UHGV virus genome: UHGV-0135730 | Reading direction: 5' to 3' (one strand) | DNA: 54,321 bases | From: a virus | In this document: positions 28,101 through 49,852 of the stretch, piece by piece | Layout: each line of letters starts with the position of its first letter | How positions within the stretch are numbered: position 1 is the first letter of the stretch | Made by a program: the position numbers and the translations under genes | Notes under the pieces: model-generated | The model's database searches: none | What the model was told of the DNA's origin: nothing | What the model saw: the letters and a program-made list of their open reading frames with translations, nothing else

Positions 28101-28235
28101 AAAGATCTGGATAGGGTTGCTAATAGCAATAAGCGTGCAACCTACACGAATGAGAGAAAGCGGCGCGGAGAAGTTTGTGCCCGTGCCTTTAACAGTGTTG
28201 CCGTTGATGGCAATTGTTCCAGTTGTGTAAATCAT
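25104..28235 (-). CDS. Side tail fibre with C-terminal intramolecular chaperone (S74-like) domain
   Basis: 1043 aa; C-terminal TSDRDLKDNIQVIGDATEAIRKMNGYTY...coiled coil resembles self-cleaving chaperone domains of tail fibres/tailspikes. Confidence 0.75.
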   Translation of the reverse strand: MIYTTGTIAINGNTVKGTGTNFSAPLSLIRVGCTLIAISNPIQIFTITEIKSGTELSVTPAASPAIAAGTKFSILLSDSISVDGLAQDVAETLRFYQEKEDEISSAIDGSNIGLGPEPRDCTDISGNPSSYVGFLRIKETTKGFPSVAAGESFLSGFICQRDTTPSYTGVFVGWSTRSLYTYTWIASSGANWTRHARKDEVDRLLQSAGSSKESQLWDGDKKNYIFVNNTGWGAYSTTGAIKLGIMYGGTGAGNAAEARNNLMVMHDAKSSLSSTQNLDDLKGDSAGFYHQYLSANAKPELNYPKQVAGSLLVQKTGAGDAKGCIQTYYVFNDVKTSYRRVFNGEGWSAWKKIVVTERVDEWGSETWIYNADNSMRMGLSASLWGCYSDTQKKWIPLAVAQGGTGATNAETARANLGVGSSNSPQFLNVSLKRATDVTTGWVAGGLLSSALVGTTGTERVYGAVYPETHLTEPDQLTMHLRTGGVSKYASLTANGEFIADSFKAKNAQQTRRNLNIPTIGGGELMTIEAPEGVEDGKYYPIIINANYYNAYLTGYQVDIVTASGAGSYPMNCNTFSGYIRTGGWSDRKDAGYGFYNRYTDKEIALHSICSSSKDKENLLFVFVEARAFPVKMRLPVGVTVQVPTAQVVYNSGKDTETIIPWGVSDPLGSYKNLQVMFDFRMGRCGFYSATTEGLHYICSGARVGLFSGITVGEEISMTMPKLTINGTIGSSKGYAAETGADWNTQQSGSLNNFKPIAGNVNAPESNVTYGGFHVGFSGTHATQFAGRNSSFYARSFEAGVDKGWHQLATLDTKNLWTGDNHFTVHYVFDSTHTRFMKHQCSASSTVNAKIVSWGDKSVPLYYEVIAADTNSSETSLKSLFMAKYLSDGSAQLQVGGSITCTTVTQTSDRDLKDNIQVIGDATEAIRKMNGYTYTLKENGLPYAGVIAQEVMEALPEAVGSFTHYGEALQGPTTDGNELREETRYLNVDYAAVTGLLVQVARETDNRVTELEEENASLRANIAAMDERIAKLEALVRQLTGSEE

Positions 28236-28412
28236 CGCAATGACTCCATAATGTTAATTAACGGAATAATTCTACCATTTTGTGATCTGTGTTGCATTTT
28301 CTGCTTACACAAAATGTATTTGTTGATTTTTATCAATATACGAAATGTGGTTTTGTCGGATATTTAAGTCACCGGATGAACCGGACGAACCAACAAGAGC
28401 GAGGATTCAAAG

Positions 28413-28661
28413 ATGAAAAACGTATTCAAAGTGGTTTTGTTCGCTGCGGCTGTAGCTCTTACTGGTTGTGCTGTTGACAAAGAGGCTGCATTGCATAACC
28501 TGCCGAACAGCGGAGTGATTCCACAGGATGTTGTCTATGATGGTAGCGGTCATCTTGTCTATGACACTGAAAAGCTACCGTATACTGGGCAATGGTGTCA
28601 TGAACTCGATCACAACATGCGCCGCATCGGTAGCCCGTCAAACTGTGTAGCTAACTACTAA
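28413..28661 (+). CDS. Small lipoprotein (opposite-strand cargo between fibre genes)
   Basis: Signal peptide with lipobox LTGC (MKNVFKVVLFAAAVALTGCA); own terminator. Confidence 0.65.
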   Translation: MKNVFKVVLFAAAVALTGCAVDKEAALHNLPNSGVIPQDVVYDGSGHLVYDTEKLPYTGQWCHELDHNMRRIGSPSNCVANY

Positions 28662-28666
28662 AAGAA

Positions 28667-28694
28667 AACCCCGCGCGAAGCGGGGTTGTTTTTT
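28667..28694. terminator. Bidirectional rho-independent terminator
   Basis: Hairpin CCCCGC-GCGAA-GCGGGG flanked by A-run and T-run. Confidence 0.7.
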
Positions 28695-31600
28695 AACCTG
28701 AGAATGTACCAGAACCGCGCGACACAATGACAGTCGGCGAGTTTATATATGCCCCCTTACTATTTTGAGCGGATACACTAATTATCACTGTAACGCTCCT
28801 GTTAGCTACTGATGCTGCGTGCATAACAAGGCGCTCTTCGCCAGTCATAGAAAGTTGTTTCTGCGAACCGCTGATGTTTATCGTACATCCGCCGAAGCCC
28901 TTAACGTTTGCTATGACACAAACATGTCGGGCGTATGCTGCGTCTGTTGTATCGTAGTACTGAATTGTTTTTTGCAATACGCCATTTTGTAACCTGCTAA
29001 CGTCAGATCCCGTATACATGTTCGCAACGTCACCGATAAATGTCTTCGCTTCCAGTTGTCCTGAGAATTTACCGTTGGTTGCGTACACTGTACCGTTAAA
29101 CACCCCATCATTAGCGTATACCGTGCCCCTTATTGTTGCCTGGTTAAATACTGCTGCACCGTTTTTGTTTATCGCCCAGCCTGTACCGTTTTCCCAGCTG
29201 TAATTACTGGATTGTATTTGCTGAGCTATTTTTGCAGTAGTGATCGATGCGTCTTTAATAAACGCTTCTTTCACATACATTGCACCGTTAGACACATAGA
29301 ATGGCGTTGTATATGTGCCGTTTGCAGCCGTCATCAACACGAAGCGGTCAACAAGGAAGATACACTGCGATTGGACGTTAGTACCGTTGCCAGTCAGCCC
29401 AAGCGACATACCTGTCGCATACTTCATGCCGTTGTTGTCGGTTGCCAGCTTGATGGAATACGTCGCATCGACATTACCTTTGAAGTCGGTTAACGCTTTC
29501 GAAGTAGTCTGTATAGCTGTTGTGTTCCCGTTAACGGTCACTGTTAGCTGATCGATTTTGCTTGATAATGCCTCGTCAGCCGTTGCCATTGTCTGTGACC
29601 ATTCTGTAATACTTGAGTTTACAGAATCGAAAGACGCTGAGATCTGGCCGAATTTTTCCGCGCTTGATGCCTCATGCGTAGAAAGCGCCGTTGATACCTC
29701 AGACACCTTCGAGTTAATCGTACTGGTAAGCGATGAGTTAAGGTTACTTATCGCGTCAGTGCGTGCCTTCGTTTCGTCAGCGACGGCCTTGTCGAGACGG
29801 TTAACGTTGCTTGTCACTTTGCCATCAAGGGTTGAAATTGATGCGTTCACGCCAGTGATGGCTTGTGCTCTGGCGCTGGACTCGTCAGCAATCGCCTGGT
29901 CCAGTCTGCTAACCTCGGATTCAGTGTTGCTTTCGAGGGTGTTAATGCTCGCATTCACTCCACTGATAGCTTCTGTTCTTGCGCTGGTTTCGTTGGCAAT
30001 AGCCTGATCTAAACGTTTAACGCTGGCGTCGGTTTTCTTGTCGAGCGCTGAAATGCTTGCGTTAACGTTGCTCACCGCCTGGCTGCGTGCGTTGGTTTCG
30101 TCAGCGATAGCCTTATCGAGACGTGAAACGCTGGCATCGGTTTTCTTATCAAGATCCGTGATCGATGCTTTTACCACGCCGATTGCTTCGGCTGTAGCTT
30201 TTTTCTCTTCAGCGATAACACTGTCAATACGATCAATCTGCGCGCTTGTTTCCTTGCGACCTTTCTTGTACTGGGCCGTAAGCGTAACACGCGTGTTGGT
30301 TTGAGCGATTGAGTTGTTAATCAGAGCAATAGATGCGTTTTGCAGGCTTGCTTTGGTCTGGCTTATTTCGTCGCTGTTCTTGTCAACGTTATTTTCAACC
30401 TTGCCAAGCTCGGCGCTGATTCCAGATATAGCCTGAGCACGGGCGCTTGATTCGTCAGCAATAGCCTGGTCTAAGCGTTTTACGCTGGCGTTTGTGTTAC
30501 TTTCGAGCGTTGTTAAATCAGCTTTAACCTCTGTTATTGCGTCGCTTCTTGCCTGCGTTTCATCTGCTATTGCTTTATCGAGTCTGGAAACGCTGGCGTC
30601 TGTTTTGCTTTCAAGGTTGCTTATTGATGCTTTCACATCGCTCACAGCCTGGGCGCGGGCGCTGACCTCGTCAGCAATAGACTGGTCAAGGCGTTTAACT
30701 GCCGAATTGGTGTTACCTTCAAGCGTGTCAATACTTGCTTTGACACTACTGATAGCTTCAGTTCTTGCACTGGTTTCGTCTGCTATTGCTTGATCCAGGC
30801 GTTTAACGCTGGCGTCGGTTTTCTTGTCAAGCGCTGAAATGCTTGCGTTAACGTCACTGACTGCCTGTGTGCGGGCGTTCGTTTCGTCTGCAATAGCCTG
30901 ATCAAGTCTATTGACGCTGGCATCGGTTTTCTTGTCGAGATTGCTTATTGATGCGTTCACGCCGTTAATTGCTTCGGCGCGGGCACTGGTTTCGTCAGCT
31001 ACTGCGCGTTCCACGCTGGAGATCTGACCCTTGAGGTTGGAATCCATCGTGTTCATTTCTGCCGTGATGGTTTTCAGAGATTCAGCCGTGGCCTGTTTCT
31101 CATCAGCAATAACGTTGTCAATGCGGTCAATTTCAGCCTTCGTCTCTGTCCTGCCTTTCTTGTACTGTGCAGTGAGAGTAACCCGCGTGTTGGTCTGAGC
31201 AAGGGAGTTGTTGATAAGTGCCAACGACGCGTTTTGCAGGCTTGCTTTTGCTTGCGCCAGTTCACTGCCAACTTTTTCGCTGGATACCTCCAGAGAGTCT
31301 ATTCTTGCCTCATGCTGTCCAATATCGTCGGCGTTTTCCCCAACCTTTTTGTAAAGATCTTCCGTCTCTTTTTTCAGTGTGTCCGTGTCAGCTTTTATGG
31401 CCCCTGTTTCTGTGATTAGGCCGTCCGTATCAGTCCTCAATTCGTCAGTGATGTTTGTCAGGTTGTCAGTGTCAACCCTTAAATCGTCAGTGATGTTTGT
31501 CAGGTTATCAGTTGCAGTTTTGAGGCTGTCAGTAGCGTCTTTAAGGTCATTTGTAGCGCTTTCGATAAGGTCGGCGCGGTTGCCAAGATCTTCAATATCG

Positions 31601-34077
31601 CTAATCATGCCCTTGAACTGCTCTGACCCCATGACGTCCTTCATCACGTAGTCGCTGATTTCGTCAAAGTTTTCAGTCGGTTTACCTGATGCCTCAACGA
31701 AGTCTGACACACCGAAAGCGTTACGCGTGCGCACATAAACGTAATAGGTGTGGCCCGTGTTCATGCCGCCAAAAGTCCATTGGTAGCCGCGCCCGGTGAA
31801 TTGCGCCAGCGTGGTTACTTTTGACGGGTCTGTGATCTGATTCTCACCTGAGTAGTAAAACTCATATGCCGTATCAGTGGTCAGCGTTGTTTTGCTGATC
31901 GGGTAGACTGTTGCCTGGAAGACGCCCGGAATCCAGTTGACTCCAATCGGGGCCGCTGGCGCACCAATAACCAGGTCAACAATACTTTCCGCACCCTTCA
32001 TACCAGTGTCATTACGCCCGCGAATACCAAGCGTGTAGCTGCCAGCGTTGAGGCCATAGAAATCATAACGGTAATTCGTGGTTTCATAAGTTGCCACTAC
32101 ACGCCCATCTGCGTTATATACGCGGATTTCAAAGGTCAGGCGATGCGTTGTTGTCTGTGTTTCCCACGTTGCGCGGCATTGAACCGTCTCAGAACCAACA
32201 TTTAACACCCTCAGGTTTTCGATGTTCGGAACGCGGAAGTGATTAAGCGTGTCGTTGTTTACCTCGAAGATTGCACCTTCATCAACTACAGCCTGTTTAT
32301 GCGGATCGTGCTGTGCAGCCTCAATGGTGTACACGCTGTTATTTTCGGTTTCCGCTACACTGGTAATTCGGCACAGAACCGGTTTTGCAGATTCAGTAGA
32401 CACGGCGAATACGGTTCCGTTGCGGATCCATGCTGGCGCTGCCGCAAGGGTAATATTGTTTCCGTTAACCCCAGTGATCTGATGTTTTTTAAACTTGCCA
32501 TCGCTGTCCAGCAAGCTGATGGTGTCACCAGCCGCCACCAGGTCAGAATCAACCTTGTCTACAGTTATTACTTTCCCGTTATTCGCCACGATGCGACCGC
32601 CTAAACGAGCGCCTGCGCGGTTATTGTCGAGTATCTCGATAATATCCCCTGGGGTGAAGTGAATTGCGTCACGGGCCATTTTAAACGTGAATTTTGAGGG
32701 TTCGCGTTTTGCTGTTTCTATCAGCCATTTGCCTGCGCGGTACGCCTGCCCGCGTGATGTGCAACCAAAAGCCTCCAACGTGGTTTCGTTGTAACCATCG
32801 CGGGCGATCAGTTCATCATCTGCCACGTATTCTTTTGATTGTTCCCAACCGTTTTCCGGGTCAGTCCATGATACGATCACGGCGTTGTAAGATTCTGCGC
32901 GAGCGATACTTGAACGAGTGAACGCGCCATCAACGACGTTAGCATTCGTGATGGTGGCAATTGGATCCTGAGGCGCATCAATCATCACAGTAAGGCGCTG
33001 CCCGTCCCATAACGCGATACCACGGAACATGCCCGCAATGTTGTCCAGCAAGTCGCGTGCGCTCATTTGCTCAGTGATGTATGCGTTAAGCGTCATGCGT
33101 GGTTCAAGGCCACCGTAACCGTCGTTTACCAACTGGTCGCAGTATTGAGAAAGCGTATACAGTGCGCCGTCATCAACGTCGATGTAACCAGCGTGGCGGG
33201 CAAGCCCGAAGCGTTCATTTTTAACCAGATACCGGAAAAGCCATGCAGGGTTGTTGGTATATGCCTTTTTAAAGCCACCAAGCCATAAACCTGAATATGT
33301 GCGCGTTTCCGGGTCGTAGTTATCAGGCACGTCAACAATCAGACCGCGCATGTGATAGGTACGTGTCGGCGTGTCAGTATACTGATCGTGGTCAATTACC
33401 GCGCCTGCTACAGCGGTGTGAGGATAAGATAAATTATCGTCGATTATCTCGCTGTAACTGCTCCACCTGGTGTCATTGCGAAGTAGATCGCTTTTGCTGT
33501 CTGGCGTTATGCGACGAACGCGGATGTCAAACGGTTTTTCATCCGGTGCCTGGATGATATGCGCTTCCATGTACTCGCCGCTTTGCTTACCAGGGCCAAT
33601 GGTAATGCCTTTAACAATTGACCATGTTGTTGATGATGAAGGCTTAACGTCAACAGCCAACGTAACAGATGTGTTGTATTGATTGCCTTTATCATCTGAC
33701 TGAACCAGAGAATCGACACCAAGATTCAGCCTTACGCGGTTAACGTTTGGATCTGAAACGGTTCGGATTATTGGTGTATCGTAAGTCACTTTTGCGTTAA
33801 CAATAACGGTTGATTCAATGGCGTTGAATCCGTTGATTGGTGACTGGTCTGCCGTACCATTACGCCACGCCACGCTGACGCCGGGGACTGATGTATTACC
33901 GTTGGCGTCAGTGATTGGGCTGTCATTAAGCATTACGCTGTTTAATGGCGCTTTCTGGTTTACAGGTCCATAGATTGGGCCCTCGCTGAGAATGTCCAAA
34001 ACGCGATAGAACTGTTTATGGAACAGGTTATCGTTTAATAGTGTTGGTGTTTTGGCTTTGCCGCCGCCGCTACTCAT
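28693..34077 (-). CDS. Central tail fibre / host-specificity protein (lambda J-like) with inserted coiled-coil repeat region
   Basis: 1794 aa; N-terminus MSSGGGKAKTPTLLNDNLFHKQFYRVLDILSEGPIYGPV parallels lambda J; central 36-aa tandem repeats; J-like C-terminal domain. Confidence 0.8.
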   Translation of the reverse strand: MSSGGGKAKTPTLLNDNLFHKQFYRVLDILSEGPIYGPVNQKAPLNSVMLNDSPITDANGNTSVPGVSVAWRNGTADQSPINGFNAIESTVIVNAKVTYDTPIIRTVSDPNVNRVRLNLGVDSLVQSDDKGNQYNTSVTLAVDVKPSSSTTWSIVKGITIGPGKQSGEYMEAHIIQAPDEKPFDIRVRRITPDSKSDLLRNDTRWSSYSEIIDDNLSYPHTAVAGAVIDHDQYTDTPTRTYHMRGLIVDVPDNYDPETRTYSGLWLGGFKKAYTNNPAWLFRYLVKNERFGLARHAGYIDVDDGALYTLSQYCDQLVNDGYGGLEPRMTLNAYITEQMSARDLLDNIAGMFRGIALWDGQRLTVMIDAPQDPIATITNANVVDGAFTRSSIARAESYNAVIVSWTDPENGWEQSKEYVADDELIARDGYNETTLEAFGCTSRGQAYRAGKWLIETAKREPSKFTFKMARDAIHFTPGDIIEILDNNRAGARLGGRIVANNGKVITVDKVDSDLVAAGDTISLLDSDGKFKKHQITGVNGNNITLAAAPAWIRNGTVFAVSTESAKPVLCRITSVAETENNSVYTIEAAQHDPHKQAVVDEGAIFEVNNDTLNHFRVPNIENLRVLNVGSETVQCRATWETQTTTHRLTFEIRVYNADGRVVATYETTNYRYDFYGLNAGSYTLGIRGRNDTGMKGAESIVDLVIGAPAAPIGVNWIPGVFQATVYPISKTTLTTDTAYEFYYSGENQITDPSKVTTLAQFTGRGYQWTFGGMNTGHTYYVYVRTRNAFGVSDFVEASGKPTENFDEISDYVMKDVMGSEQFKGMISDIEDLGNRADLIESATNDLKDATDSLKTATDNLTNITDDLRVDTDNLTNITDELRTDTDGLITETGAIKADTDTLKKETEDLYKKVGENADDIGQHEARIDSLEVSSEKVGSELAQAKASLQNASLALINNSLAQTNTRVTLTAQYKKGRTETKAEIDRIDNVIADEKQATAESLKTITAEMNTMDSNLKGQISSVERAVADETSARAEAINGVNASISNLDKKTDASVNRLDQAIADETNARTQAVSDVNASISALDKKTDASVKRLDQAIADETSARTEAISSVKASIDTLEGNTNSAVKRLDQSIADEVSARAQAVSDVKASISNLESKTDASVSRLDKAIADETQARSDAITEVKADLTTLESNTNASVKRLDQAIADESSARAQAISGISAELGKVENNVDKNSDEISQTKASLQNASIALINNSIAQTNTRVTLTAQYKKGRKETSAQIDRIDSVIAEEKKATAEAIGVVKASITDLDKKTDASVSRLDKAIADETNARSQAVSNVNASISALDKKTDASVKRLDQAIANETSARTEAISGVNASINTLESNTESEVSRLDQAIADESSARAQAITGVNASISTLDGKVTSNVNRLDKAVADETKARTDAISNLNSSLTSTINSKVSEVSTALSTHEASSAEKFGQISASFDSVNSSITEWSQTMATADEALSSKIDQLTVTVNGNTTAIQTTSKALTDFKGNVDATYSIKLATDNNGMKYATGMSLGLTGNGTNVQSQCIFLVDRFVLMTAANGTYTTPFYVSNGAMYVKEAFIKDASITTAKIAQQIQSSNYSWENGTGWAINKNGAAVFNQATIRGTVYANDGVFNGTVYATNGKFSGQLEAKTFIGDVANMYTGSDVSRLQNGVLQKTIQYYDTTDAAYARHVCVIANVKGFGGCTINISGSQKQLSMTGEERLVMHAASVANRSVTVIISVSAQNSKGAYINSPTVIVSRGSGTFSG
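29560..31560. repeat. In-frame tandem repeats within J-like gene (about 108-bp units plus a higher-order duplication)
   Basis: Repeated units encoding ...KKTDASVKRLDQAIADETSARTEAISGVNASI...; duplicated block encoding LTAQYKKGR... at about 30260 and 31160. Confidence 0.75.
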
Positions 34078-34090
34078 GGTTTTTCTCCTG

Positions 34091-34621
34091 TTAACTTACA
34101 ACGTCAAGGGCGTCTCTGTTGTTACTTGTGTCTATGCCTAACGACCCGACATTTGAACCTATTTTCATTTCACCCAACAGGATCGGCACTGGTCTACCCT
34201 GGCCTACCTTGTTTTCAACGCTGGTGTATGTGTTGTTAGATATGGTGTTATCTTGTGCGCTTTCTGCTGATGTTTTTATCTTCATGTTGCGTGACATAAA
34301 GATCGAGAATGCAACGCTAACAACCGAAACACCAATCAAAATCCAGCCTACAACGCCAATCCCCGCAATACCACCTTCCACAACTGGTGCAACAATGACT
34401 GTGGTTCCGTCCGGGTATTTACTGTTAACCGCTGCGGGCGCGGTCTTTTCGTCATAATCTTTCCCGGCAATCCTCAGGCGCAAAGGGGTATTTAAAAACG
34501 CCTTCTTGAACTCATGATTCTGCGCAACCAATAAGTTAAGACCTTGCGCTGGCGTATCAACGTTCAAACACACCTTGCCGTAATATCTTCGAAGATTGCC
34601 CGTAAATCTAAACTTGAGCAT
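34091..34621 (-). CDS. Tail assembly protein I-like
   Basis: 176 aa, position between K and J, hydrophobic central segment. Confidence 0.6.
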   Translation of the reverse strand: MLKFRFTGNLRRYYGKVCLNVDTPAQGLNLLVAQNHEFKKAFLNTPLRLRIAGKDYDEKTAPAAVNSKYPDGTTVIVAPVVEGGIAGIGVVGWILIGVSVVSVAFSIFMSRNMKIKTSAESAQDNTISNNTYTSVENKVGQGRPVPILLGEMKIGSNVGSLGIDTSNNRDALDVVS

Positions 34622-35295
34622 TTGTCAGATCTCCATATTGAATTGGTCTGTCGAACATACGCGGGCCGCATTTGCTCGCGGCGGCTTAACAGTCCGGCAT
34701 TGTCATGATGCAAAACAGTGTTATCGCCCAGGTAAATCATCGCGTGGCATGGGTCAGCGCCTTTAAACGGCTGGCGGATAATCACGTCACCGGGCTGAAT
34801 GCTTTGCGCGTCAACCATGAAAAACCCGTTCAATGGCAGGTTCTTTATGTACAGGTTTTCCCCACGCAGCCACCACCCGTCGTGGCGTTCAAAGTCAGGC
34901 AGATCCACGCCGCATAGGTGATAGGCGTCACGGAAAAGCGAATAACAGTCTGTTTTCCCGTGCTCAAATTTACGGCCTAACAGGTGCGCCACTGGGCGGA
35001 ATTTTCTCACCCTGCCACCGGAGCACAAAAACCACGGCAGGCCGGAAATAACCTGCTGTTGTCGATCCCGCGCTGACAACACCAATGAATCATTAGTATG
35101 TGAGTGGAAAACAGCTGTTATAACGCCCAATTCGTCAGCTTTGATATAATCGTCAGGAGAGATTTTAAAACTGTTGTGCGGCGTTTCAGACACGTTAGCG
35201 CACGGGTAAAAATAATCGTTATCTATCACCAGCCCGCACACTTCCTCGCGCGGGTGGGCTGCCGCATAGCGAATCATTTTATCTTCAAGTGCCAT
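34564..35295 (-). CDS. Tail assembly protein K-like (MPN/JAMM plus NlpC/P60)
   Basis: HSHT JAMM-like motif (FHSHTNDS) and C-terminal Cys/His peptidase-like region; start at MALEDK. Confidence 0.7.
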   Translation of the reverse strand: MALEDKMIRYAAAHPREEVCGLVIDNDYFYPCANVSETPHNSFKISPDDYIKADELGVITAVFHSHTNDSLVLSARDRQQQVISGLPWFLCSGGRVRKFRPVAHLLGRKFEHGKTDCYSLFRDAYHLCGVDLPDFERHDGWWLRGENLYIKNLPLNGFFMVDAQSIQPGDVIIRQPFKGADPCHAMIYLGDNTVLHHDNAGLLSRREQMRPAYVRQTNSIWRSDKCSSLDLRAIFEDITARCV

Positions 35296-35297
35296 AA

Positions 35298-36002
35298 TTA
35301 ACCGACCTTGCTTGATCCGGGAAAACATGAAATTGGTAACGGATTGGGGCGCGGGAAACGCAAACGGCAACCGCTCAGGCGGTGGCTGCATTTATCCAGC
35401 TTTGGATCGCTGGTCGATTCGTCTTTATCTGTAGCTACAGGGCCGCCACTGTATCCGCAACCGTCGCCCCGGTATTGCCACTGGCAAACGTCAGCAAGGA
35501 TTGTGCGCCCAGGAATAACCGCCTTGTCAGCATCAATTGGCGTTGACAGTTCATACTGCACCTGGTCGGCTGTTTCTTCGCTCATCGCCTCAACGACGTA
35601 AAAAGATACAGCCTCGATAGATGGATCTGCATCCGGGTTGCCGTTGGGGAAATTAACGGCGTCCAGGTATTTTACTTCCACTTGGCGGCGCGTAACCTTC
35701 ATTCCTCGCAGGTCGTTAAAATCGTTGTTCATCCCGGTGATTAGCCCGCCAATGTTGGCTACTACCATTTGCGGGCGCGAGTAAACGCCTTCGTTTTTCA
35801 TTTCGAAGCCAGTAGCCTCGATTGGGTAGCTGTTGTAAGTCACTCCCTTCCAGATAACCGGGCCGTAATAACCATTCGCGCCGGAATGGAAGCGGATAAC
35901 CTCGCCACCCAGGGGTGTGAGGTCTAATTCAAACAGGTCAATTACCGCGCCGACTCCGGCATCGACGGAATCAATAATCATTTCTGTAGGTATGGTGCGC
36001 AT
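35298..36002 (-). CDS. Minor tail protein L-like
   Basis: 234 aa, position and C-terminal Cys cluster as in lambda L. Confidence 0.65.
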   Translation of the reverse strand: MRTIPTEMIIDSVDAGVGAVIDLFELDLTPLGGEVIRFHSGANGYYGPVIWKGVTYNSYPIEATGFEMKNEGVYSRPQMVVANIGGLITGMNNDFNDLRGMKVTRRQVEVKYLDAVNFPNGNPDADPSIEAVSFYVVEAMSEETADQVQYELSTPIDADKAVIPGRTILADVCQWQYRGDGCGYSGGPVATDKDESTSDPKLDKCSHRLSGCRLRFPRPNPLPISCFPGSSKVG

Positions 36003-36020
36003 TTTATCACCTTGTCATTT

Positions 36021-36084
36021 TGTGATCGCCATCACGCTAAATCATACCAAAACGGTTGATCGCGTTTTTTACAATACGTATATT
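36021..36084 (+). promoter_or_regulatory. CRP-like palindrome plus sigma70 promoter for cargo cassette
   Basis: TGTGATCGCCATCACG (36021-36036) centred about 62 bp upstream of predicted start; TTGATC-17-TATATT at 36056-36084. Confidence 0.5.
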
Positions 36085-36100
36085 GTACTCAAAAGGAAGC

Positions 36101-36286
36101 ATGGTTAACAAAATGGCGCGGAGGTGTGAGGTGGATGATAAGGTGTGGAGGTTGACGGTGTTCCTTAGTGATGGCAGGAAAATGACTGTAGCTCTGTATA
36201 AGGATGAAGGCGAGGCACTGACTGACGCGCTTTTACTTGCTGAAGACGATCGCGTTTTGGGGTACAGGATCGAACCTGTCAAATGA
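36101..36286 (+). CDS. Hypothetical protein (cargo cassette)
   Basis: Start at MVNK with AAGGAAG RBS. Confidence 0.5.
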   Translation: MVNKMARRCEVDDKVWRLTVFLSDGRKMTVALYKDEGEALTDALLLAEDDRVLGYRIEPVK

Positions 36287-36298
36287 GAGGTTAACGAA

Positions 36299-36646
36299 AT
36301 GCAAAAATATAGTCTTGATGTGTGGTTAAGTGGTTGCAAGGAGTGTTTCGGATTATTTGATAGCGAAGAGGCAGCTTTGGAAGAAGGAAGGATTCTTGAA
36401 TGTAGTTTAGGCCATCCAGTGAAATATGCTGCTAATCCGGTGCAGGTAAATGATGAGGTGGAAAACATGAACCCGAAAGATATTAACTTTAACGTCAATG
36501 TTGAATTTGCAGGCTCTATGGATCAGGCTTGCCCTGGTGAAATCCACGCAAAAGGCTTCCCGGCTGACGATCCTGAGGCAAAACGCGAATACGAAAAAGC
36601 GGCGAAAGACTTCTGCATTGATAACCTGGGCGCATTCGATAAATAA
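36299..36646 (+). CDS. Hypothetical protein (cargo cassette)
   Basis: 115 aa ORF on strand opposite to tail operon. Confidence 0.55.
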   Translation: MQKYSLDVWLSGCKECFGLFDSEEAALEEGRILECSLGHPVKYAANPVQVNDEVENMNPKDINFNVNVEFAGSMDQACPGEIHAKGFPADDPEAKREYEKAAKDFCIDNLGAFDK

Positions 36647-36655
36647 GGCGGCAAC

Positions 36656-36904
36656 ATGGGGCGGCGCAATCACGGCGATTATGTGTACACGTTGAAACAG
36701 GCCGCCCGCCTAGTTGGTTATCATGAACACGAATTTATTGATTTGCTGATTGAGCGCGGGATACTGTACCAGGTCTGTTTAACGCTGTACCCGAAAGCGA
36801 AATACCTACAGGAAAAGTTATTCATCATCATGACGGATGAAAACCAGGTTAACCATTCATTCGTCACGGATAAGGGCGTTAATTATCTGCGTGATAACTT
36901 ATAG
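36656..36904 (+). CDS. Putative HTH DNA-binding protein (cargo cassette)
   Basis: YTLKQAARLVGYHEHEFIDLLIERGIL resembles MerR/excisionase-type HTH. Confidence 0.45.
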   Translation: MGRRNHGDYVYTLKQAARLVGYHEHEFIDLLIERGILYQVCLTLYPKAKYLQEKLFIIMTDENQVNHSFVTDKGVNYLRDNL

Positions 36905-36914
36905 GTGACAGATT

Positions 36915-37031
36915 ATGAAAATAGAAGTTTTGGCGCTAATAATAATGGGATTGATAGTATTTGGCGTTCATGCTGTAGATCTGGACTGGAAAACGATAGC
37001 GGAAAATATAGCATTAATGGAAATGGAATAA
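36915..37031 (+). CDS. Small hydrophobic peptide (38 aa)
   Basis: MKIEVLALIIMGLIVFGVHAVDLDWKT...; last ORF before terminator. Confidence 0.35.
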   Translation: MKIEVLALIIMGLIVFGVHAVDLDWKTIAENIALMEME

Positions 37032-37034
37032 TAA

Positions 37035-37062
37035 TAACCCCGCTTCTCGCGGGGTCGTGTTT
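37035..37062. terminator. Bidirectional terminator hairpin
   Basis: Hairpin CCCCGC-TTCTC-GCGGGG with flanking A/T runs. Confidence 0.55.
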
Positions 37063-37258
37063 ATACGCCATCAACCAAAAATAAAACCTCCTTCCCTTCC
37101 CGGGATCTACACCCCACGTACCCATCGCCAACGTCGTGAAGATACCATATATCGCCGTTGTCAGCTTTTACAGTAAGGTCGTTGATCTCATAGTCGTCAA
37201 ACAATGTAAAAGCGTAAGTTTTGTCAACTACACAAGTCCCGTACATAACAACCCCCAT
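37061..37258 (-). CDS. Hypothetical protein downstream of M
   Basis: 65 aa ORF, start overlaps M stop. Confidence 0.4.
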   Translation of the reverse strand: MGVVMYGTCVVDKTYAFTLFDDYEINDLTVKADNGDIWYLHDVGDGYVGCRSREGKEVLFLVDGV

Positions 37259-37611
37259 TAGCCAACAACTTGTTCAAACGTTGCGTTTAGCGTGTACACA
37301 GGCCCGTCTTTGGTCATGCTCCAGCTACGGCAAACGAAAAGCCTTTGCACCCCGTCGATCGATGGAGTCCAGTAAAACGCCTCGACAGCGCCGCGCGCCC
37401 TCAAAAATGCTTCGGCCTGGATCGCCACGTTTCCACCATCACCACATCCCGCGCTACTGCCTTTGAAAACCAGGGTGTAACTATCAAGCAACGTGTTAAT
37501 CCCTTTCGCCTGGCGCTGTTCATAACCATCACCAAGTTTAACGACAGACACATTTGGTTCCCTGGTCACGCTGTAGCTTCTTTGCGGCGTCCATCTGAAA
37601 ACTTCTGGCAT
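37258..37611 (-). CDS. Minor tail protein M-like
   Basis: 117 aa; position after tape measure; GGGGG RBS. Confidence 0.65.
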   Translation of the reverse strand: MPEVFRWTPQRSYSVTREPNVSVVKLGDGYEQRQAKGINTLLDSYTLVFKGSSAGCGDGGNVAIQAEAFLRARGAVEAFYWTPSIDGVQRLFVCRSWSMTKDGPVYTLNATFEQVVG

Positions 37612-37639
37612 GATTCCCCCTATAAGTTACATATTGCAT

Positions 37640-37668
37640 ACATCTTTACGCGCCTCTACGCGAAAAAT
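37640..37668 (-). promoter_or_regulatory. Conserved 29-nt element upstream of M (second copy at portal start)
   Basis: Minus strand ATTTTTCGCGTAGAGGCGCGTAAAGATGT; near-identical to 49853-49881. Confidence 0.45.
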
Positions 37669-37739
37669 GAGAAATTCATCACAAGAATTATAACCAGTTT
37701 ACAAAATGGCTTCACATAAGGCGTGACAAGATGTATATA
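37668..37739 (+). promoter_or_regulatory. CRP-like site plus TACAAAATGG-type promoter for cargo cassette
   Basis: TGAGAAATTCATCACA (37668-37683); GTTTACAAAATGGC then TTCACA-17-TATATA (37711-37739). Confidence 0.5.
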
Positions 37740-37779
37740 GTAAGCAAGAAGAAAAAGCAGTACCGACAAGGGGGGCAAT

Positions 37780-37935
37780 ATGGAACGCTATGTGGTTGTG
37801 ATGCTGAACAAAGCATTCGAACAGGTGGAAGTTGCGATTGTGAAGGGCTTTGATGATGCATTCAAATACGGTCAATTCATGATGAATGCAAAAGAAGATG
37901 AATACCGTGATTTCTTCCTGAAAGTGGTCAACTAA
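37780..37935 (+). CDS. Hypothetical small protein (cargo cassette)
   Basis: 51 aa ORF. Confidence 0.45.
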   Translation: MERYVVVMLNKAFEQVEVAIVKGFDDAFKYGQFMMNAKEDEYRDFFLKVVN

Positions 37936-37953
37936 TGGATTGCGGGGTGGGTT

Positions 37954-38208
37954 ATGAAATTGGTAATGATTGGTAAAAACCTGAAAGCACAGAAAAACGC
38001 ACAGGACCGGATCATCAAAAAGGGCAAGGCTTTATTAAATGCTTTCCTGAAAAAAGAGGCCAACCCCAAAAAATTACGCGATGGCTACGGTTATAAATTT
38101 GACATCAACCCCGATTGGCGGTTATTCAGCGAAGATTTAAAGATGTGGTTAATTATTGACCACCTGGAATATAACAGGCACTGTGGGGTGAAAGGTGCTC
38201 ACAAGTGA
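37954..38208 (+). CDS. Hypothetical basic protein (cargo cassette)
   Basis: 84 aa ORF. Confidence 0.5.
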   Translation: MKLVMIGKNLKAQKNAQDRIIKKGKALLNAFLKKEANPKKLRDGYGYKFDINPDWRLFSEDLKMWLIIDHLEYNRHCGVKGAHK

Positions 38209-38239
38209 CACGGATTTGAATGTTGCGGAGGAAAACAAA

Positions 38240-38410
38240 ATGAAAAATCCGGCAAATAAAAGCAACGTAAAACGCATAGCCTGGGTGCTAAAATATATGG
38301 ATAGTAAAGGGGATACATATACATGCCCATTTTTCAGGTATACTGACGCGGTATTTGCCAGAAGTGTACACGGAGGGAAAATTGAGAGAGGATATACAAG
38401 ATTTGAGTAA
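38240..38410 (+). CDS. Hypothetical small protein (cargo cassette)
   Basis: Start at MKNPANK with GGAGG RBS. Confidence 0.45.
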   Translation: MKNPANKSNVKRIAWVLKYMDSKGDTYTCPFFRYTDAVFARSVHGGKIERGYTRFE

Positions 38411-38448
38411 ATTTATTCACGAAATCAATAACATGACGAAGGTTAACA

Positions 38449-38628
38449 ATGGTTATTCATGAGACTGAAGAATGCAGAAGTATTAATCTTAGTATTGAAG
38501 ATGACGGGAGATTATGGATCGTTAGCGACTGCGAGATGATTGTAATAGACCAAAAGCAAGCTGACGAACTAATAAGAGCATTACAGCTTTATGCAAACGG
38601 CGAATTTAAAAATGATGAAATTGAATAA
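38449..38628 (+). CDS. Hypothetical small protein (cargo cassette)
   Basis: 59 aa ORF ending at terminator. Confidence 0.45.
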   Translation: MVIHETEECRSINLSIEDDGRLWIVSDCEMIVIDQKQADELIRALQLYANGEFKNDEIE

Positions 38629-38632
38629 AGAT

Positions 38633-38665
38633 AACCCCGGCATTGTACCGGGGTTTTGTTTATTT
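38633..38665. terminator. Bidirectional rho-independent terminator
   Basis: Hairpin CCCCGG-CATTGTA-CCGGGG followed by TTTTGTTTATTT. Confidence 0.7.
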
Positions 38666-41008
38666 CCTGCGAGGTTGCAACATTCCTCCGGGTCGTTGCG
38701 ATTCCCTTGCCATCATTTTCATCGCGACGCGTTCCATCGTCTGTTCAAGTCTGCGACTGTCTTCGTCGCTAAATCCGTTTGTGGTCTGTACGGTGATGTT
38801 AACAGGCATATTGATGCCGCCGCCGCTGAAGAGATCACGGCCAGGAATTACCCTACCATTCTCGCCAGGAATCATATACTGACGCCCGTTGCTCGTCTGG
38901 AATAGCTCTGGGATTCCGTGCTCACCTACGCGATACAGGCTGCCACCATTAACAGAACCACCATTATAACGCCCGCCACCAAAGATTGACGTTGCCAGCG
39001 ACATGATCGCAGAAAGCGCCGCAGCACCAGCCGCCGCCCAGCTACCACCAGTTGACGCCGCAGTCGCCGCCGCCGCTGGGGCCGCCGCCGCTGCAATCTG
39101 GCCTTGTGCCGCTACTGCGCCAGCCGTTGTACTTGCCTGGGTAGCCTTGCTTTGCGTTTCCATCATCAATTGATCTGCTATCCAGTTAGCGGCAATTTCT
39201 GACAGTTTGTTGCCAACGGTGTTAAGTATGCTACTTCCCAGGTTGGCGAAAACCTCGCTTAATGATTGAGTGCCGTTTAGCAGTCCGGTAAGGGCATTAC
39301 CCATGCCACCCTTCAGGCCGCTGACGCACGCACCAATCAGGCCGTTTGTTTCGCTTTGCGCCTGCCATTGTTCCCATTTCAGATCTCTGATCTGTTGTTC
39401 ATATTCCAATAGCGCCTGTTTCTGTTGCGCCTCTGTAGCGCCCAAGTCTATCAGCATTTGTTTGCGAACGGCCCATTCATTTTGTGCCTGCTTGATTGGG
39501 TCAATTTCTCCCTTAAGCTGGTCCATCGGGCTGACTATGTGATCCCATTTGTCGCGTAGCTCATCAACAGGGATTTGCGCCAATTCGTCCTTCAGTTCCT
39601 TGCCTATCCCTTTCTGCGCGGCCTTGTACTCAAGTAGGGTTATTTTGCCCTGGGCGAATGCAGCTTCAATGGCCTTGCCGTTCTCTAATGCTTTGCGCAT
39701 AGCGGCGGCGTCCTTGTTGTACTGGTCGGACACTTTTATGCCTTCATCACCAAGCCGATCAGCTTCAGATTTCTTGTCCTTTTTGCCCTTTTTCCCTTTT
39801 TTAGGCTTACCGACTGGCTGATCGAATCCGGTGATCTTGCCATCGTCAGCCTCATCCTGTTTCTGCATTAACTCATCATAGGCGGCGGTCGCGTTTTTAA
39901 TGTCGTTTGCAAACGTCATGACTTTGCCGACGGTGGGGCCAAATTTTTTCTCGTTGTTGCTGTTTAGCTCTTCCTTGCGTTTATCGACGATCTCCTTCAT
40001 CCACTTGTAACCATCCATTAGCGCTTTGATTGGCGTTACCATTTTGATGATTTCTTCCGCCACCTCACCAGCCTTAACAGCAACGTCGTCAAACATGTCG
40101 ATGAACTCGTTACCAGCGGTTTTAAGTGTGTTGAAACAGGTTGCGGCGAATTTTGCGCCTTTACCCAATCCCTCAACGCCACCAGTGATTAAGTCTATTG
40201 CTGTTACAACGCCGTCAGATATGCCGAAAAGATCATCAAGCTGTTCGACAAGTCCCATAACCTCAACTTTAAGCTCGTTGAAGGCCATGCCGGATGTGCG
40301 AGGCAACTGCGCAAACTTCTCGTTTGTTTCCTGCGTAGCGGCCTGGATCGCGTTAAGCATCCTTTCAGCCGTGATCTTGCCGTCCAGCATTTCAGCGCGG
40401 AACTGACCCATAGACAACCCCATTTGGCGGGCCATTTCCTGTATGATTGTTGGTGTGTTGTCACGTATTGAGTTAAATTCCTCAGCCTGCAACACGCCAG
40501 CATCAATAGCCTGGCGGAACTGAAGCATGGAGTTTGATAGTTGTTCCGCAGACACGCCGCCCAGGTTGCCGAGTTTTTGCAGCGTGCTAACCAGGTTGAG
40601 TACCTGGCCTTCTGTAGCGGATGTGTTTTTTAGCGATATAGCAAGACCTTGCCACAGGGCACCAGTATCCTTGAGGCTTTGGCCTGTTTCTTTTGATATA
40701 TCTTTCAGTCTGTTGAAAACACGTTCCGTGGCCTCCGCTTCACCTGTAAGCAGTTTGATTTTTACGCGAAGCATTTTCGCTTGCTCCGCCATGTCAATAA
40801 ACTGGCGTACAGCCTCCGCAGCAAGTAGCAAATGGATAACCCTGGATAGCGCTTTGATTGAAGTCTTAAGCGTGTTCACCTGGCGGTCAGCGCGTTTTGC
40901 GCCACGCTCGATGCTGTCAAAAGCCTGGTCTGCCTGTCGTTGAGCAACGAGAAGTTGACCAGTTTTTGCATCAACTTCGTAGTAAATTGTACCTAAACTA
41001 GTTGCCAT
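38660..41008 (-). CDS. Tail tape measure protein
   Basis: 782 aa, coiled-coil rich with Gly/Ala-rich segment; between chaperone and M. Confidence 0.85.
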   Translation of the reverse strand: MATSLGTIYYEVDAKTGQLLVAQRQADQAFDSIERGAKRADRQVNTLKTSIKALSRVIHLLLAAEAVRQFIDMAEQAKMLRVKIKLLTGEAEATERVFNRLKDISKETGQSLKDTGALWQGLAISLKNTSATEGQVLNLVSTLQKLGNLGGVSAEQLSNSMLQFRQAIDAGVLQAEEFNSIRDNTPTIIQEMARQMGLSMGQFRAEMLDGKITAERMLNAIQAATQETNEKFAQLPRTSGMAFNELKVEVMGLVEQLDDLFGISDGVVTAIDLITGGVEGLGKGAKFAATCFNTLKTAGNEFIDMFDDVAVKAGEVAEEIIKMVTPIKALMDGYKWMKEIVDKRKEELNSNNEKKFGPTVGKVMTFANDIKNATAAYDELMQKQDEADDGKITGFDQPVGKPKKGKKGKKDKKSEADRLGDEGIKVSDQYNKDAAAMRKALENGKAIEAAFAQGKITLLEYKAAQKGIGKELKDELAQIPVDELRDKWDHIVSPMDQLKGEIDPIKQAQNEWAVRKQMLIDLGATEAQQKQALLEYEQQIRDLKWEQWQAQSETNGLIGACVSGLKGGMGNALTGLLNGTQSLSEVFANLGSSILNTVGNKLSEIAANWIADQLMMETQSKATQASTTAGAVAAQGQIAAAAAPAAAATAASTGGSWAAAGAAALSAIMSLATSIFGGGRYNGGSVNGGSLYRVGEHGIPELFQTSNGRQYMIPGENGRVIPGRDLFSGGGINMPVNITVQTTNGFSDEDSRRLEQTMERVAMKMMARESQRPGGMLQPRRK

Positions 41009-41027
41009 GATTTAACCTCATGAAAAT

Positions 41028-41089
41028 TGTGATCTAGATCTCTATTCTATACAAAATGGCTTCAGTTCAACGAATACATTTTGTATAAA
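41028..41089 (+). promoter_or_regulatory. CRP-like site plus TACAAAATGG-type promoter for cargo cassette
   Basis: TGTGATCTAGATCTCT (41028-41043) centred about 60 bp upstream of predicted start; TATACAAAATGGC then TTCAGT-17-TATAAA. Confidence 0.5.
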
Positions 41090-41165
41090 GAAGATAAAAG
41101 AAAGGGATAGAGCGAAGGGACTTAAAAGGCCGGATTAACCGGAGGAAGCAAAAGAGGATAAGAAA

Positions 41166-41255
41166 ATGAAAAACGTAAACTACCACCCCAACGAGCATGA
41201 GCGTTATGCCGACTTCATCAAAGAAATGTTGAAAGCACTTAAAAACAAAAACTAA
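41166..41255 (+). CDS. Hypothetical small protein (29 aa)
   Basis: MKNVNYHPNEHERYADFIKEMLKALKNKN; precedes secreted-protein gene. Confidence 0.35.
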   Translation: MKNVNYHPNEHERYADFIKEMLKALKNKN

Positions 41256-41267
41256 GCGGGGTGAGTT

Positions 41268-41684
41268 ATGAAACGGTTAATTAGAGCGGCAATGATGGCG
41301 GTAATGGTTGGTTTGGCATTCAACGCAAATGCAAACGATGTAATAAATATAAACTGCGATGAAGTAGCAAATAACGTTGCCGAATACCATAAAATTTTCA
41401 AGAAGGAACCCGCAGCCATCAAGGTTTTTTATAAAGCAATTGACAAGCATTTCGAAGGTAAACCAGTTTATGCAAGATGGTTTAATTATGGGCTTGTGAA
41501 GGAGGCTGCTGTAGGTGTCGTATTCGAAGGTAACAATGAAATAAGAAACAGAATAGCCAACGAGTGCAACGCTGATAAAGCCGCATTTGCTGAAAGAATA
41601 TTTAACGAAGGCGGCGCGGGTGTTAAAAATCATGCTATCGTTGATTTAGGTAACGGCAGAATTGAAATTGTAAGGATCAGATAA
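41268..41684 (+). CDS. Secreted protein of unknown function (cargo)
   Basis: Cleavable signal peptide MKRLIRAAMMAVMVGLAFNANA; own promoter and terminator on opposite strand. Confidence 0.6.
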   Translation: MKRLIRAAMMAVMVGLAFNANANDVININCDEVANNVAEYHKIFKKEPAAIKVFYKAIDKHFEGKPVYARWFNYGLVKEAAVGVVFEGNNEIRNRIANECNADKAAFAERIFNEGGAGVKNHAIVDLGNGRIEIVRIR

Positions 41685-41708
41685 TGAGCACTATCAAAAA
41701 GCATCATC

Positions 41709-41733
41709 GACATATAACGCCCGGTTCTACCGG
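41709..41733 (+). terminator. Rho-independent terminator after secreted-protein gene
   Basis: Hairpin GCCCGG-TTCTA-CCGGGC followed by TTTTTCTT. Confidence 0.7.
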
Positions 41734-42413
41734 GCTTTTTCTTGCTCGCGTTTTTTCATCAATTCCAGCACCCTTTTAGCCGCTCCCATTTGCTCATCAT
41801 AATCACGTTTATTTATATGAACGTTTGGTTTACCTTTCTCGTTTCTTTCGTCTGGCGGCGTTTTAGCGCGTACAGCGGCCCTATATCCGGTCATTGTCAT
41901 GCCCCACGCTTCAGATTCAGACAATCCCAAGTGAGCAACGGCGGAGTAAACATACTCAAGGATGTCGAATGTTGGCTTGTACTCACCTTCCTGGTTTGTG
42001 ACCGTGTCTTCTTCTGGACCGTCACCAATTAAACCGTGATACATACAGTGTTGCGCCAGCGTGATAACGTCGCTGGTGGGCATCAATCCCGGTTTCATTC
42101 TCAACTTACCCGAAGGAGTAAAGCTGCATTCGCCCAATAACGGGCCTATTTCGCATTCTGAGCAACATTTCAGTACGTGGATGGACGTTTGCACCAGTTC
42201 ACCATAACAACGCGCCAGAATGCGATTGCGGAGGTCTGAATCAGTTGGCAAACGTTGTGGGTATCTGCCACCGTGCACCGTTGCGAAGTATTCTACCAGC
42301 TCCCTGTCGCTGCCGATCTTAGCCATTGCAGCAAAGCAGGGATTGAACTCGTAACGTCTGCCATCAACCACAACCGCAAATTGTCCTGTTCGAACATGGA
42401 TCATAACTGTCAC
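41727..42413 (-). CDS. Tail assembly chaperone-like protein
   Basis: Position between major tail and tape measure; basic C-terminus; no frameshift site identified. Confidence 0.4.
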   Translation of the reverse strand: MTVMIHVRTGQFAVVVDGRRYEFNPCFAAMAKIGSDRELVEYFATVHGGRYPQRLPTDSDLRNRILARCYGELVQTSIHVLKCCSECEIGPLLGECSFTPSGKLRMKPGLMPTSDVITLAQHCMYHGLIGDGPEEDTVTNQEGEYKPTFDILEYVYSAVAHLGLSESEAWGMTMTGYRAAVRAKTPPDERNEKGKPNVHINKRDYDEQMGAAKRVLELMKKREQEKAR

Positions 42414-42458
42414 CCTAAAAATAAAGGGGCCAAATGGCCCCGATGTTAATATTTACTG

Positions 42459-42935
42459 TTACATTGACGGAACGTCACCTACTGTGACCTTGCCAGCGCT
42501 TTCGCACTCAATGGACCAGGTGGACACATCGTCGTGCGGATCTTCTTCTTTAAAGGAGGTGCAAAGGAATGGGCCTTCGGTTACGTCGAGCGGGGAAACA
42601 AGTTTTAGCCAGACGTAAGGCTGCGCACCAGTTGTTTCGCCAGGGTTAATAACGTGGCGTTTAAGTGCTTTCTGGTTGTGGATCTCTTCGGTGCGGGATA
42701 CGCCGTCGCCGGAGAAAGAAACGGACTTGTAAGTTACCATTGATTCTTTGGTATAGTCTGCTGATTTATCAGCGGTGGCGTCTGCAGTTTCCCATTCTAC
42801 GGAAAGCGATTTGCCACGCATCATACCTAACGCTTTATAAGCGCTTTCTTCAGGTTTCGCATTAGGGCAAGCGATAGCGTAAAATGCGGCAACGTCGCGG
42901 CCTAAGAACGAACCTTTATCACAAGTCTGAGACAT
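42459..42935 (-). CDS. Major tail protein
   Basis: 158 aa, position upstream of chaperone/tape measure. Confidence 0.6.
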   Translation of the reverse strand: MSQTCDKGSFLGRDVAAFYAIACPNAKPEESAYKALGMMRGKSLSVEWETADATADKSADYTKESMVTYKSVSFSGDGVSRTEEIHNQKALKRHVINPGETTGAQPYVWLKLVSPLDVTEGPFLCTSFKEEDPHDDVSTWSIECESAGKVTVGDVPSM

Positions 42936-49835: not shown

Positions 49836-49852
49836 AATGTTTACTCCTGAAT

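Follow-up and report, generated by a model that had tools for sequence, protein, structure and literature searches.

The first moron, gene 15 of phage HK97, lies between the chaperone and tape-measure genes and encodes an inner-membrane exclusion protein (PMC3594210), and taiEcA of phi80 lies on the opposite strand inside the Q late operon, where it is expressed in the lysogen and lowered in expression when Q is supplied (PMC11364771). In the mEpimmI group, described in 2025 as having a CI-like repressor, an N-like antiterminator and lambda-like tail genes, the lipoprotein Lpp010 of phage mEp010, expressed from a plasmid, excluded mEp010, mEp044, mEp554 and lambda, all LamB-dependent, and did not exclude mEp013 (PMC11893012). 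Here we compare with these systems the tail operon of UHGV virus genome UHGV-0135730 (a stretch of 54,321 nucleotides, called the window throughout), whose minus-strand tail genes are separated at four junctions by blocks of plus-strand genes, the cassettes C1 to C4. We consider it likely that each of these blocks is an accessory cassette of the moron type, inserted at one of the recurrent slots in the Q-antiterminated late (tail) operon of a temperate mEpimmI-group phage.

Four occupied junctions in one tail operon

The window is a temperate siphophage of the already published mEpimmI (mEp021) group. A megablast search with positions 28000–42000 matched temperate Escherichia coli siphophages of this group at 88–91% identity and 89–99% query coverage, the left part of the window matched the same phages, and related prophages were found in 35 of 5,426 complete E. 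coli genomes. A Q-type antiterminator gene (5103–5831, minus strand; Pfam PF03589, E 7e-32), annotated as Q in mEp021 and MagusPhagus, lies upstream of the late genes.

The tail genes run on the minus strand from the tail tube gene (42459–42935) through a DUF6246 gene at the chaperone position (41727–42413), the tape measure protein (TMP) gene (38660–41008), M (37258–37611), L (35298–36002) and K (34564–35391), all identified by Pfam, to I (34091–34621; no Pfam match), J (28693–34077) and the fibre gene (25104–28235), the last three being named from the annotation of relatives. The four plus-strand blocks reported between them by the first-pass annotation were confirmed at the coordinates given there: C1 lies at the J/fibre junction, C2 at M/L, C3 at TMP/M and C4 at DUF6246/TMP, with one to four open reading frames (ORFs) each. 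On the gene map, genes of one operon are thus interrupted by opposite-strand genes, as in a noncontiguous operon. The claim that cargo stands at every junction was an overstatement, as the tube/DUF6246, L/K, K/I and I/J junctions are tight; nor is the cargo unusually dense, the layout being standard in the whole mEpimmI group (44 of 44 loci; annotated identically in mEp021 and mEp010) and the same junctions being hot spots in the wider clade.

These junctions were followed through two sets of relatives, whose loci carry labels of the form L0xx: 14 fetched phage or prophage records, and an IMG/VR scan with the M protein that yielded 30 more group members (M 85–97% identical), for 44 group loci in total, together with 50 phages with an approximately 70% identical M, hereafter the distant group. 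Among the fetched records the J/fibre gap ranges from 140 nt in L004, where it is empty, to more than 1.3 kb, and the M/L gap from 128 nt in L006, again empty, to 1.6 kb; M/L is likewise empty, at 128 nt, in the IMG/VR group member L027. In the distant group the junctions are either closed (−4 to 5 nt at TMP/M, 38–39 nt at M/L and 31–40 nt at DUF6246/TMP) or filled by unrelated cargo of 0.3–2.8 kb in either orientation, and L075, L082 and L094 have all three inner junctions closed. The window therefore holds extra DNA between genes that are adjacent in relatives, as expected of a moron, and, judged by this comparison of loci, the cassettes are dispensable insertions. The contents of the slots also differ between relatives: J/fibre may hold a type-A Lpp with a DUF6453 protein, a type-C Lpp, Cor, or another secreted protein, while five different sets of exported or membrane proteins are found at DUF6246/TMP. 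The uninterrupted distant relative L094 has terminator-like hairpins in its short DUF6246/TMP and M/L spacers (2734–2753 and 6350–6369), so that the slots coincide with terminator-bearing spacers of the late operon, and the terminators, to go by their placement, may predate the cargo.

The cassettes had further been said to possess their own terminators and promoters. The former are borne out, since the top-scoring hairpins of the region sit exactly at the 3' end of each cassette, with −13.4 to −18.3 kcal/mol, well below shuffled controls (z-scores −3.3 to −5.2). Between C1 and J lies T1 (28667–28687), a bidirectional intrinsic terminator with U-tracts on both strands (−18.3 kcal/mol on the plus and −14.6 kcal/mol on the minus strand); between C2 and a 65-amino-acid gene after M, the hairpin terminator T2 (37036–37056; both strands, −13.8 and −16.1 kcal/mol); between C3 and the TMP gene, the bidirectional T3 (38633–38655; −16.2 and −16.8 kcal/mol); and between C4 and the DUF6246 gene, T4 (41719–41735; −13.4 kcal/mol), with a good U-tract on the plus strand only. 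In the cassette direction the U-tracts are good at T1, T3 and T4 and weaker at T2; the late-operon direction has a strong terminator in T1 and moderate ones in T2 and T3. On the late strand, a further terminator-like hairpin (42426–42441, minus) separates the tube gene from the DUF6246 gene, as would fit attenuation past the major tail protein gene and a need for Q-dependent read-through.

As for promoters, there are candidates for three cassettes and none for C1: sigma-70-like −35/−10 pairs with 17-bp spacing, which are consensus matches only, precede C2, C3 and C4. The C2 site (TTGATC-17-TATATT, 36056–36084, plus strand) was found by scan and is kept in 14 of 14 relatives, the cassette-less L006 included. 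The C3 control region (37700–37739, plus strand), read by eye and kept in 15 loci, consists of the motif TACAAAATGG (37700–37709), one base, and TTCACA-17-TATATA (37711–37739). At C4 (41041–41094) an inverted repeat, TATACAAAATG...CATTTTGTATA, encloses a pair also read by eye, TTCAGT-17-TATAAA (41061–41089), and this region is nearly invariant in 14 loci irrespective of the cargo. Candidate internal minus-strand promoters near the M, TMP, L and fibre genes were seen by eye only.

All 11 cassette ORFs appear to be under purifying selection. Each was compared codon by codon with its homologues from the 14 fetched relatives, and the pooled ratios of nonsynonymous to synonymous change (pN/pS) fall between 0.08 and 0.32, including those of the 29- and 38-amino-acid ORFs, as against 0.05–0.19 for the tail genes; as the pairwise comparisons are non-independent, these values indicate selection and do not measure it. 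A comparison of GC content with the flanking tail genes, suggested as a check by the first-pass annotation, sets 8 of the 11 ORFs apart (0.34–0.43 against 0.46–0.53) and leaves C1, C2a and C2c indistinct; GC and AT skew flip sign across the cassettes. The description of the contents as ORFans fails, because 8 of the 10 scanned ORFs match PHROG families; two have Pfam domains, and counterparts are present in dozens of related phages and prophages. An NCBIfam scan of the cassette ORFs returned noise only. Four cargo genes share the start region GAGGA-N5-6-A(A/G)ATGAAAAA (28401–28420, 36287–36306, 38228–38247 and 41154–41173), in which a Shine-Dalgarno sequence precedes a start codon and the next two codons specify Lys-Asn or Gln-Lys. 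Neither an Rfam nor a tRNA scan, each run over the full window, gave a match.

Products of the four cassettes

C1 (28413–28661, plus strand) encodes an 82-amino-acid lipoprotein with the lipobox LTGC (PHROG 12984 "lipoprotein", E 1e-26; pN/pS 0.10), a type-C Lpp superinfection-exclusion protein directed to the outer membrane. It is 100% identical over 82 amino acids to mEp010 gp116, that is, to Lpp010, and has the lipobox signal peptide MKNVFKVVLFAAAVALTG/C. Of the exclusion or defence function proposed for the cargo, exclusion is accordingly established for the homologue of C1, while the defence half drew no meaningful match in PADLOC. The C-terminus of J in the window is only 67% identical to that of mEp010, so that the specificity of self-exclusion is not certain, and no clean pattern linked lipoprotein type to the J C-terminus across relatives. 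Within J itself, at 29710–31011, a 36-codon (108-nt) unit stands in seven diverged tandem copies, accompanied by a second repeat, of 168 nt, in two copies; these correspond to the variable J repeat region of the mEpimmI paper (PMC11893012). In relatives with a type-A Lpp (L001, where 1762–2915 corresponds to mEp021_81 plus mEp021_80, and L003, L009 and L011), the J/fibre junction also holds a 311-amino-acid DUF6453 protein gene on the opposite strand.

C4 comprises a 29-amino-acid micro-protein, C4a (41166–41255, plus strand; 11 of 14 loci; pN/pS 0.10), and a 138-amino-acid exported protein, C4b (41268–41684, plus strand), with a signal peptide ending ANA/N and two invariant Cys residues. The AlphaFold2 (AF2) model of C4b is a helical bundle with a C-terminal hairpin, at a predicted local distance difference test score (pLDDT) of 78; a structure search of the Protein Data Bank (PDB) gave no significant neighbour, and a homologue search found only close relatives within the same phage group. 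Within the group, whatever else fills this slot is always exported or bound to the membrane (secreted proteins 119 and 165 amino acids long; a TagO-like lipoprotein with a second lipoprotein; a 35-amino-acid protein with a 100-amino-acid membrane protein), and in the distant group the slot is again filled mostly by lipoproteins. A similar signal peptide (MKRL.K...A.NANA or a lipobox) starts different cargo proteins at this slot, in the window (41268–41340) as in L004, L012, L013, L006 and L009, which suggests exchange of cargo downstream of a common promoter and leader segment.

C2 begins with the 51-amino-acid C2a (36131–36286, plus strand; PHROG 29559; 11 of 14 loci; pN/pS 0.28), whose start is probably GTG 36131, behind a GGAGG site, rather than ATG 36101 as first called; the RefSeq name "transporter" that it bears was set aside as having neither Pfam nor NCBIfam support. 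C2b (36299–36646, plus strand) is a 115-amino-acid protein (PHROG 38567, E 3e-68; 13 of 14 loci at 65–94% identity; pN/pS 0.32) for which a candidate lipobox (LSGC, residues 10–13) was rejected, no hydrophobic signal sequence preceding it. C2c (36656–36904, plus strand) is a stand-alone KilAC (ANT) domain protein of 82 amino acids (Pfam PF03374, E 1.3e-6, above the cutoff; pN/pS 0.09), 84–100% identical in 13 of 14 loci, and its homologues form only seven clusters among 5.8 billion proteins, all of 82 amino acids and all from close relatives in the same phage group. C2d (36915–37031, plus strand; 9–10 of 14 loci; pN/pS 0.25) is a 38-amino-acid hydrophobic peptide with a single transmembrane helix. 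On the minus strand, a 65-amino-acid gene overlapping the M stop (37061–37258; pN/pS 0.17; without a Pfam family) is present wherever C2 is and missing together with it in L006 and L027, so that the M/L insertion holds genes on both strands.

The immI region of P22 (mnt-arc-ant) likewise places an ANT/KilAC antirepressor gene with its own promoter among late structural genes. We take C2c to resemble P22 Ant in the KilAC domain only (82 amino acids), the N-terminal part of Ant being absent, and no Mnt- or Arc-like regulators are known here, no search having been aimed at them. LexA control of the KilAC cassette was considered and dropped, as none of the cassettes has a CTGT-N8-ACAG box nearby and matches are about as numerous as chance would give.

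C3 holds four genes on the plus strand. C3a (37780–37935; PHROG 29810; 41 of 44 group loci; pN/pS 0.08) encodes a 51-amino-acid protein, and C3b (37954–38208; 44 of 44 group loci) an 84-amino-acid protein of the ParE_like family (Pfam PF24732, E 7e-12, 45.6 bits against a cutoff of 24.4). Downstream lie C3c (38240–38410; 9–10 of 14 loci; pN/pS 0.17), of about 56 amino acids, which probably starts at ATG 38240, led by the Shine-Dalgarno/start motif GAGGAAAACAAAATG, and not at GTG 38195, and the 59-amino-acid C3d (38449–38628; PHROG 13627; 7–8 of 14 loci; pN/pS 0.32). C3a and C3b might be read as a type II toxin–antitoxin module, a ParE-family toxin with a small antitoxin serving abortive infection or prophage stabilisation: the Pfam score gives C3b a toxin-family domain, RefSeq calls its homologues "ParE family toxin-like protein", and C3a lies 18 nt upstream, accompanies it in all but three of the group loci and is strongly conserved. 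Against such a pairing, Pfam and NCBIfam scans found in C3a no antitoxin, DNA-binding or other Pfam domain, and in L010, L036 and L037 C3a is cleanly missing beside an intact C3b, a loss that would be lethal for a canonical pair. No other neighbour is universal either (L006 and L011 have only C3a and C3b; L010 has C3b, C3c and C3d), so C3b has no adjacent, always-accompanying antitoxin. The family is narrow (nine hits among 1.84 billion representatives in a profile search), and its distant members stand in arrays of small phage genes with no antitoxin or conserved partner. The fold of C3b is unconfirmed, its AF2 model (pLDDT 58) being too poor for a fold search and a PDB sequence search giving no match, and PADLOC offers no meaningful match. 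C3b thus shares with type II ParE/RelE systems its Pfam family and a small upstream gene, and differs from them in lacking a recognisable antitoxin, in having a partner dispensable in three relatives, and in belonging to a narrow, phage-borne family. We regard the toxin–antitoxin explanation as quite unlikely.

Control regions and competing explanations

On the reading as moron-type cassettes, the cassettes would be transcribed in the lysogen from their own promoters and stop at their terminators, which would keep antisense transcription off the tail genes. During lytic growth, Q-modified RNA polymerase would pass the terminators on the other strand and allow the tail proteins to be made, a read-through that the Q antiterminator gene would explain; the convergent antisense transcription would then damp the cassettes, as reported for phi80 taiEcA, the closest precedent from experiment. 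The envelope proteins C1, C4b and probably C2d would act on incoming phage or the cell surface, and the small cytoplasmic proteins of C2 and C3 (KilAC, ParE_like and their partners) would have regulatory or interference roles.

A group-specific motif complicates this picture. The 10-mer TACAAAATGG is extended to the 15-mer TACAAAATGGCTTCA at C3 and C4, and the window has 13 copies of the 9-mer ACAAAATGG where 1.1 would be expected; the 9-mer reaches a density of 2.96 per 10 kb in group loci and 0.11 in the distant group (27-fold). Sites lie at 15028–15037 (minus), 37700–37714 (plus), 41050–41064 (plus; a copy belonging to the C4 inverted repeat) and 41076–41085 (minus), and further ones at 7292–7301 (plus), 7357–7366 (minus), 28275–28284 (minus), 28308–28316 (plus) and 36016–36024 (minus); those at 7292 and 7366 flank the nutR2/t4 region, in positions conserved in mEp021. 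One possibility is that the motif is a promoter module of the UP-element type, kept by inheritance; another is that a phage regulator binds it. As it might be the operator of the prophage repressor, an S24/HTH (helix-turn-helix) protein by Pfam (15151–15798, minus strand), the two early control regions were compared, which brought out no clearly shared operator; palindromes of the CTTGCA-N4-TGCAAG type were seen, by eye, near the repressor gene only.

Several observations weigh against a simple prophage-expressed, exchangeable cargo. No convincing promoter was found for C1; the M/TMP and DUF6246/TMP slots are never empty within the mEpimmI group; and the PADLOC defence-system models gave the cassette proteins a single weak match (C3b, E 0.05). 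The divergent spacers upstream of C2, C3 and C4 are 86–90% identical in 41–44 of 44 loci while the synonymous sites of neighbouring genes differ by 0.33–0.45. The L/C2 spacer (36003–36130), which contains the C2 promoter-like site, a CRP-like TGTGATCGCCATCACG (36020–36035) and a minus-strand extended −10-like sequence, TGGTATGAT, is retained in the cassette-less L006 (9103–9231), so part of it may serve the L gene. The same register (TACAAAATGG, one base, −35, 17 bp, −10) recurs at the promoters of C3 and C4 and at the early promoter (15037–14998), which lies upstream of the N-like gene; this could mean that C3 and C4 are co-regulated with early lytic genes and not constitutively expressed in the prophage. 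C3a and C3b, present in 41 and all 44 of the group loci, and also C2b and C2c, come close to core status in the group; they may belong to the fixed gene set of the phage and not to a lysogenic-conversion cargo open to exchange.

These points feed a different account, in which C2, C3 and perhaps also C4 belong to the lytic or early programme as fixed genes, for host take-over, anti-defence or control of induction, driven through the TACAAAATGG module, silent in the lysogen and so no lysogenic-conversion cargo. Beyond the conserved control regions, the shared register and the group enrichment of the motif, this account can draw on C2c, found in 13 of the 14 fetched records and in every IMG/VR locus reaching M/L except L027, on the inclusion of a KilAC-like protein among manually defined core genes (PMC11893012), and on the arrays of early-region type in which distant ParE_like members stand. 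Yet the C2 block is missing from two otherwise intact group members, L006 and L027, and none of these genes occurs in relatives whose tail module is the same; the cassettes and the early promoter do not have their spacer and −10 regions, where repressors usually bind, in common, and the motif, at −47 to −38, fits a plain UP-element-like module with no bearing on repression. Position on the opposite strand of a late operon with a private terminator is, moreover, the signature of prophage-expressed morons, and we judge the early-programme account unlikely. A bolder proposal makes the cassettes nodes of a group-specific regulatory layer. A phage factor would bind the asymmetric 10–15-nt element TACAAAATGG/TACAAAATGGCTTCA and bring the embedded units, the ParE_like and KilAC genes among them, and perhaps internal tail promoters into step with the lysis–lysogeny switch. 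The element does recur at the early promoter, around nutR2/t4 and within the divergent spacers between tail-gene segments. If the proposal were true, the "tail operon" would consist of modules under separate control; it seems to us rather improbable.

That the plus-strand genes are tail accessory or assembly factors required for the virion is highly improbable, even though they sit inside the tail module and are conserved within the group. One opposite-strand cargo gene at J/fibre, the DUF6453 gene mEp021_80, is annotated as encoding a virion structural protein found by mass spectrometry, so a gene is not shown to be non-structural just by lying on the opposite strand, odd as it would be for a structural gene to run counter to the tail operon. 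The same tail genes occur in relatives that do entirely without the plus-strand genes. In the window these genes are transcribed against the late operon and encode a lipoprotein, an exported protein and small cytoplasmic proteins, the last with domains of regulatory type. The mEp021 record marks the proteins seen by mass spectrometry, and it flags as structural none of its homologues of the window's cargo (gp63, gp67, gp68 and gp71–74). The interpretation as accessory cargo is largely right for the architecture and for C1, and plausible for C4 by its position and type of protein.

Other genes of the structural region were noted in passing. A 456-amino-acid head-module protein beside the terminase (about 48465–49856, minus strand, in the window; 21477–22847 in L003, with equivalents elsewhere) is called "anti-CBASS protein Acb1 family protein" in RefSeq and a DUF1073 protein in another relative, the Acb1 name being probably an artefact. 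HNH endonuclease genes occupy other structural-operon junctions in relatives, at I/J in mEp021 (mEp021_78; L001 8132–8698) and at the M/TMP slot and in the head region of strain E21845/O/A (L007; 11504–11986 and 21612–22103); none of these genes occurs in the window.

Relation to described systems

What emerges is a testable map of accessory-gene sites in a prevalent group of gut coliphages, with four tail-operon slots, two of them for envelope proteins (one held by a proven exclusion lipoprotein, the other at the position of HK97 gp15) and two for small cytoplasmic proteins. With the uninterrupted relatives taken into account, the terminator-bearing spacers of a Q-dependent late operon appear as recurrent landing sites, and the map might be used to annotate exclusion or defence candidates in prophages and to choose genes for deletion or assay. 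The locus is no new kind of system; it is an instance of the well-known morons and of opposite-strand genes in Q-dependent late operons.

Set beside the HK97 gp15 moron (Juhala et al. 2000; Cumby et al. 2012, summarised in PMC3594210), the C4 slot is the same chaperone/tape-measure junction and its products are similarly aimed at the envelope. The cassettes in general resemble HK97-type morons in having their own terminator, a lower GC content and, for three of the four, a promoter-like site, and in being inserted between tail genes that are adjacent in relatives. The differences are that a single tail operon here has four slots, all filled on the opposite strand by one to four ORFs, and that conservation of the control regions extends through an entire phage group. 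C4b, for its part, is an exported helical protein of soluble type and not a YebO-like inner-membrane peptide, and an exclusion phenotype is known for none of C2–C4.

With phi80 taiEcA the window shares the interruption of a Q-antiterminated late operon by opposite-strand genes, as a noncontiguous operon, and prophage expression with down-regulation by late read-through would be the expected likeness. The taiEcA gene differs in lying upstream of the packaging genes and in being a defined defence by tail-assembly interference, paired with its own anti-defence gene; the window showed no homology to Tai, and read-through and interference are what the arrangement would predict. C1 corresponds to Lpp010 and Lpp021 and to Cor of phi80, N15 and HK022 (PMC11893012): the slot adjoins the receptor-binding tail genes in the same way, and relatives hold an Lpp021-type lipoprotein or Cor in the very place of C1. 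The published test of Lpp010 was made from a plasmid and not in a lysogen; the C1 protein itself shows no difference from Lpp010.

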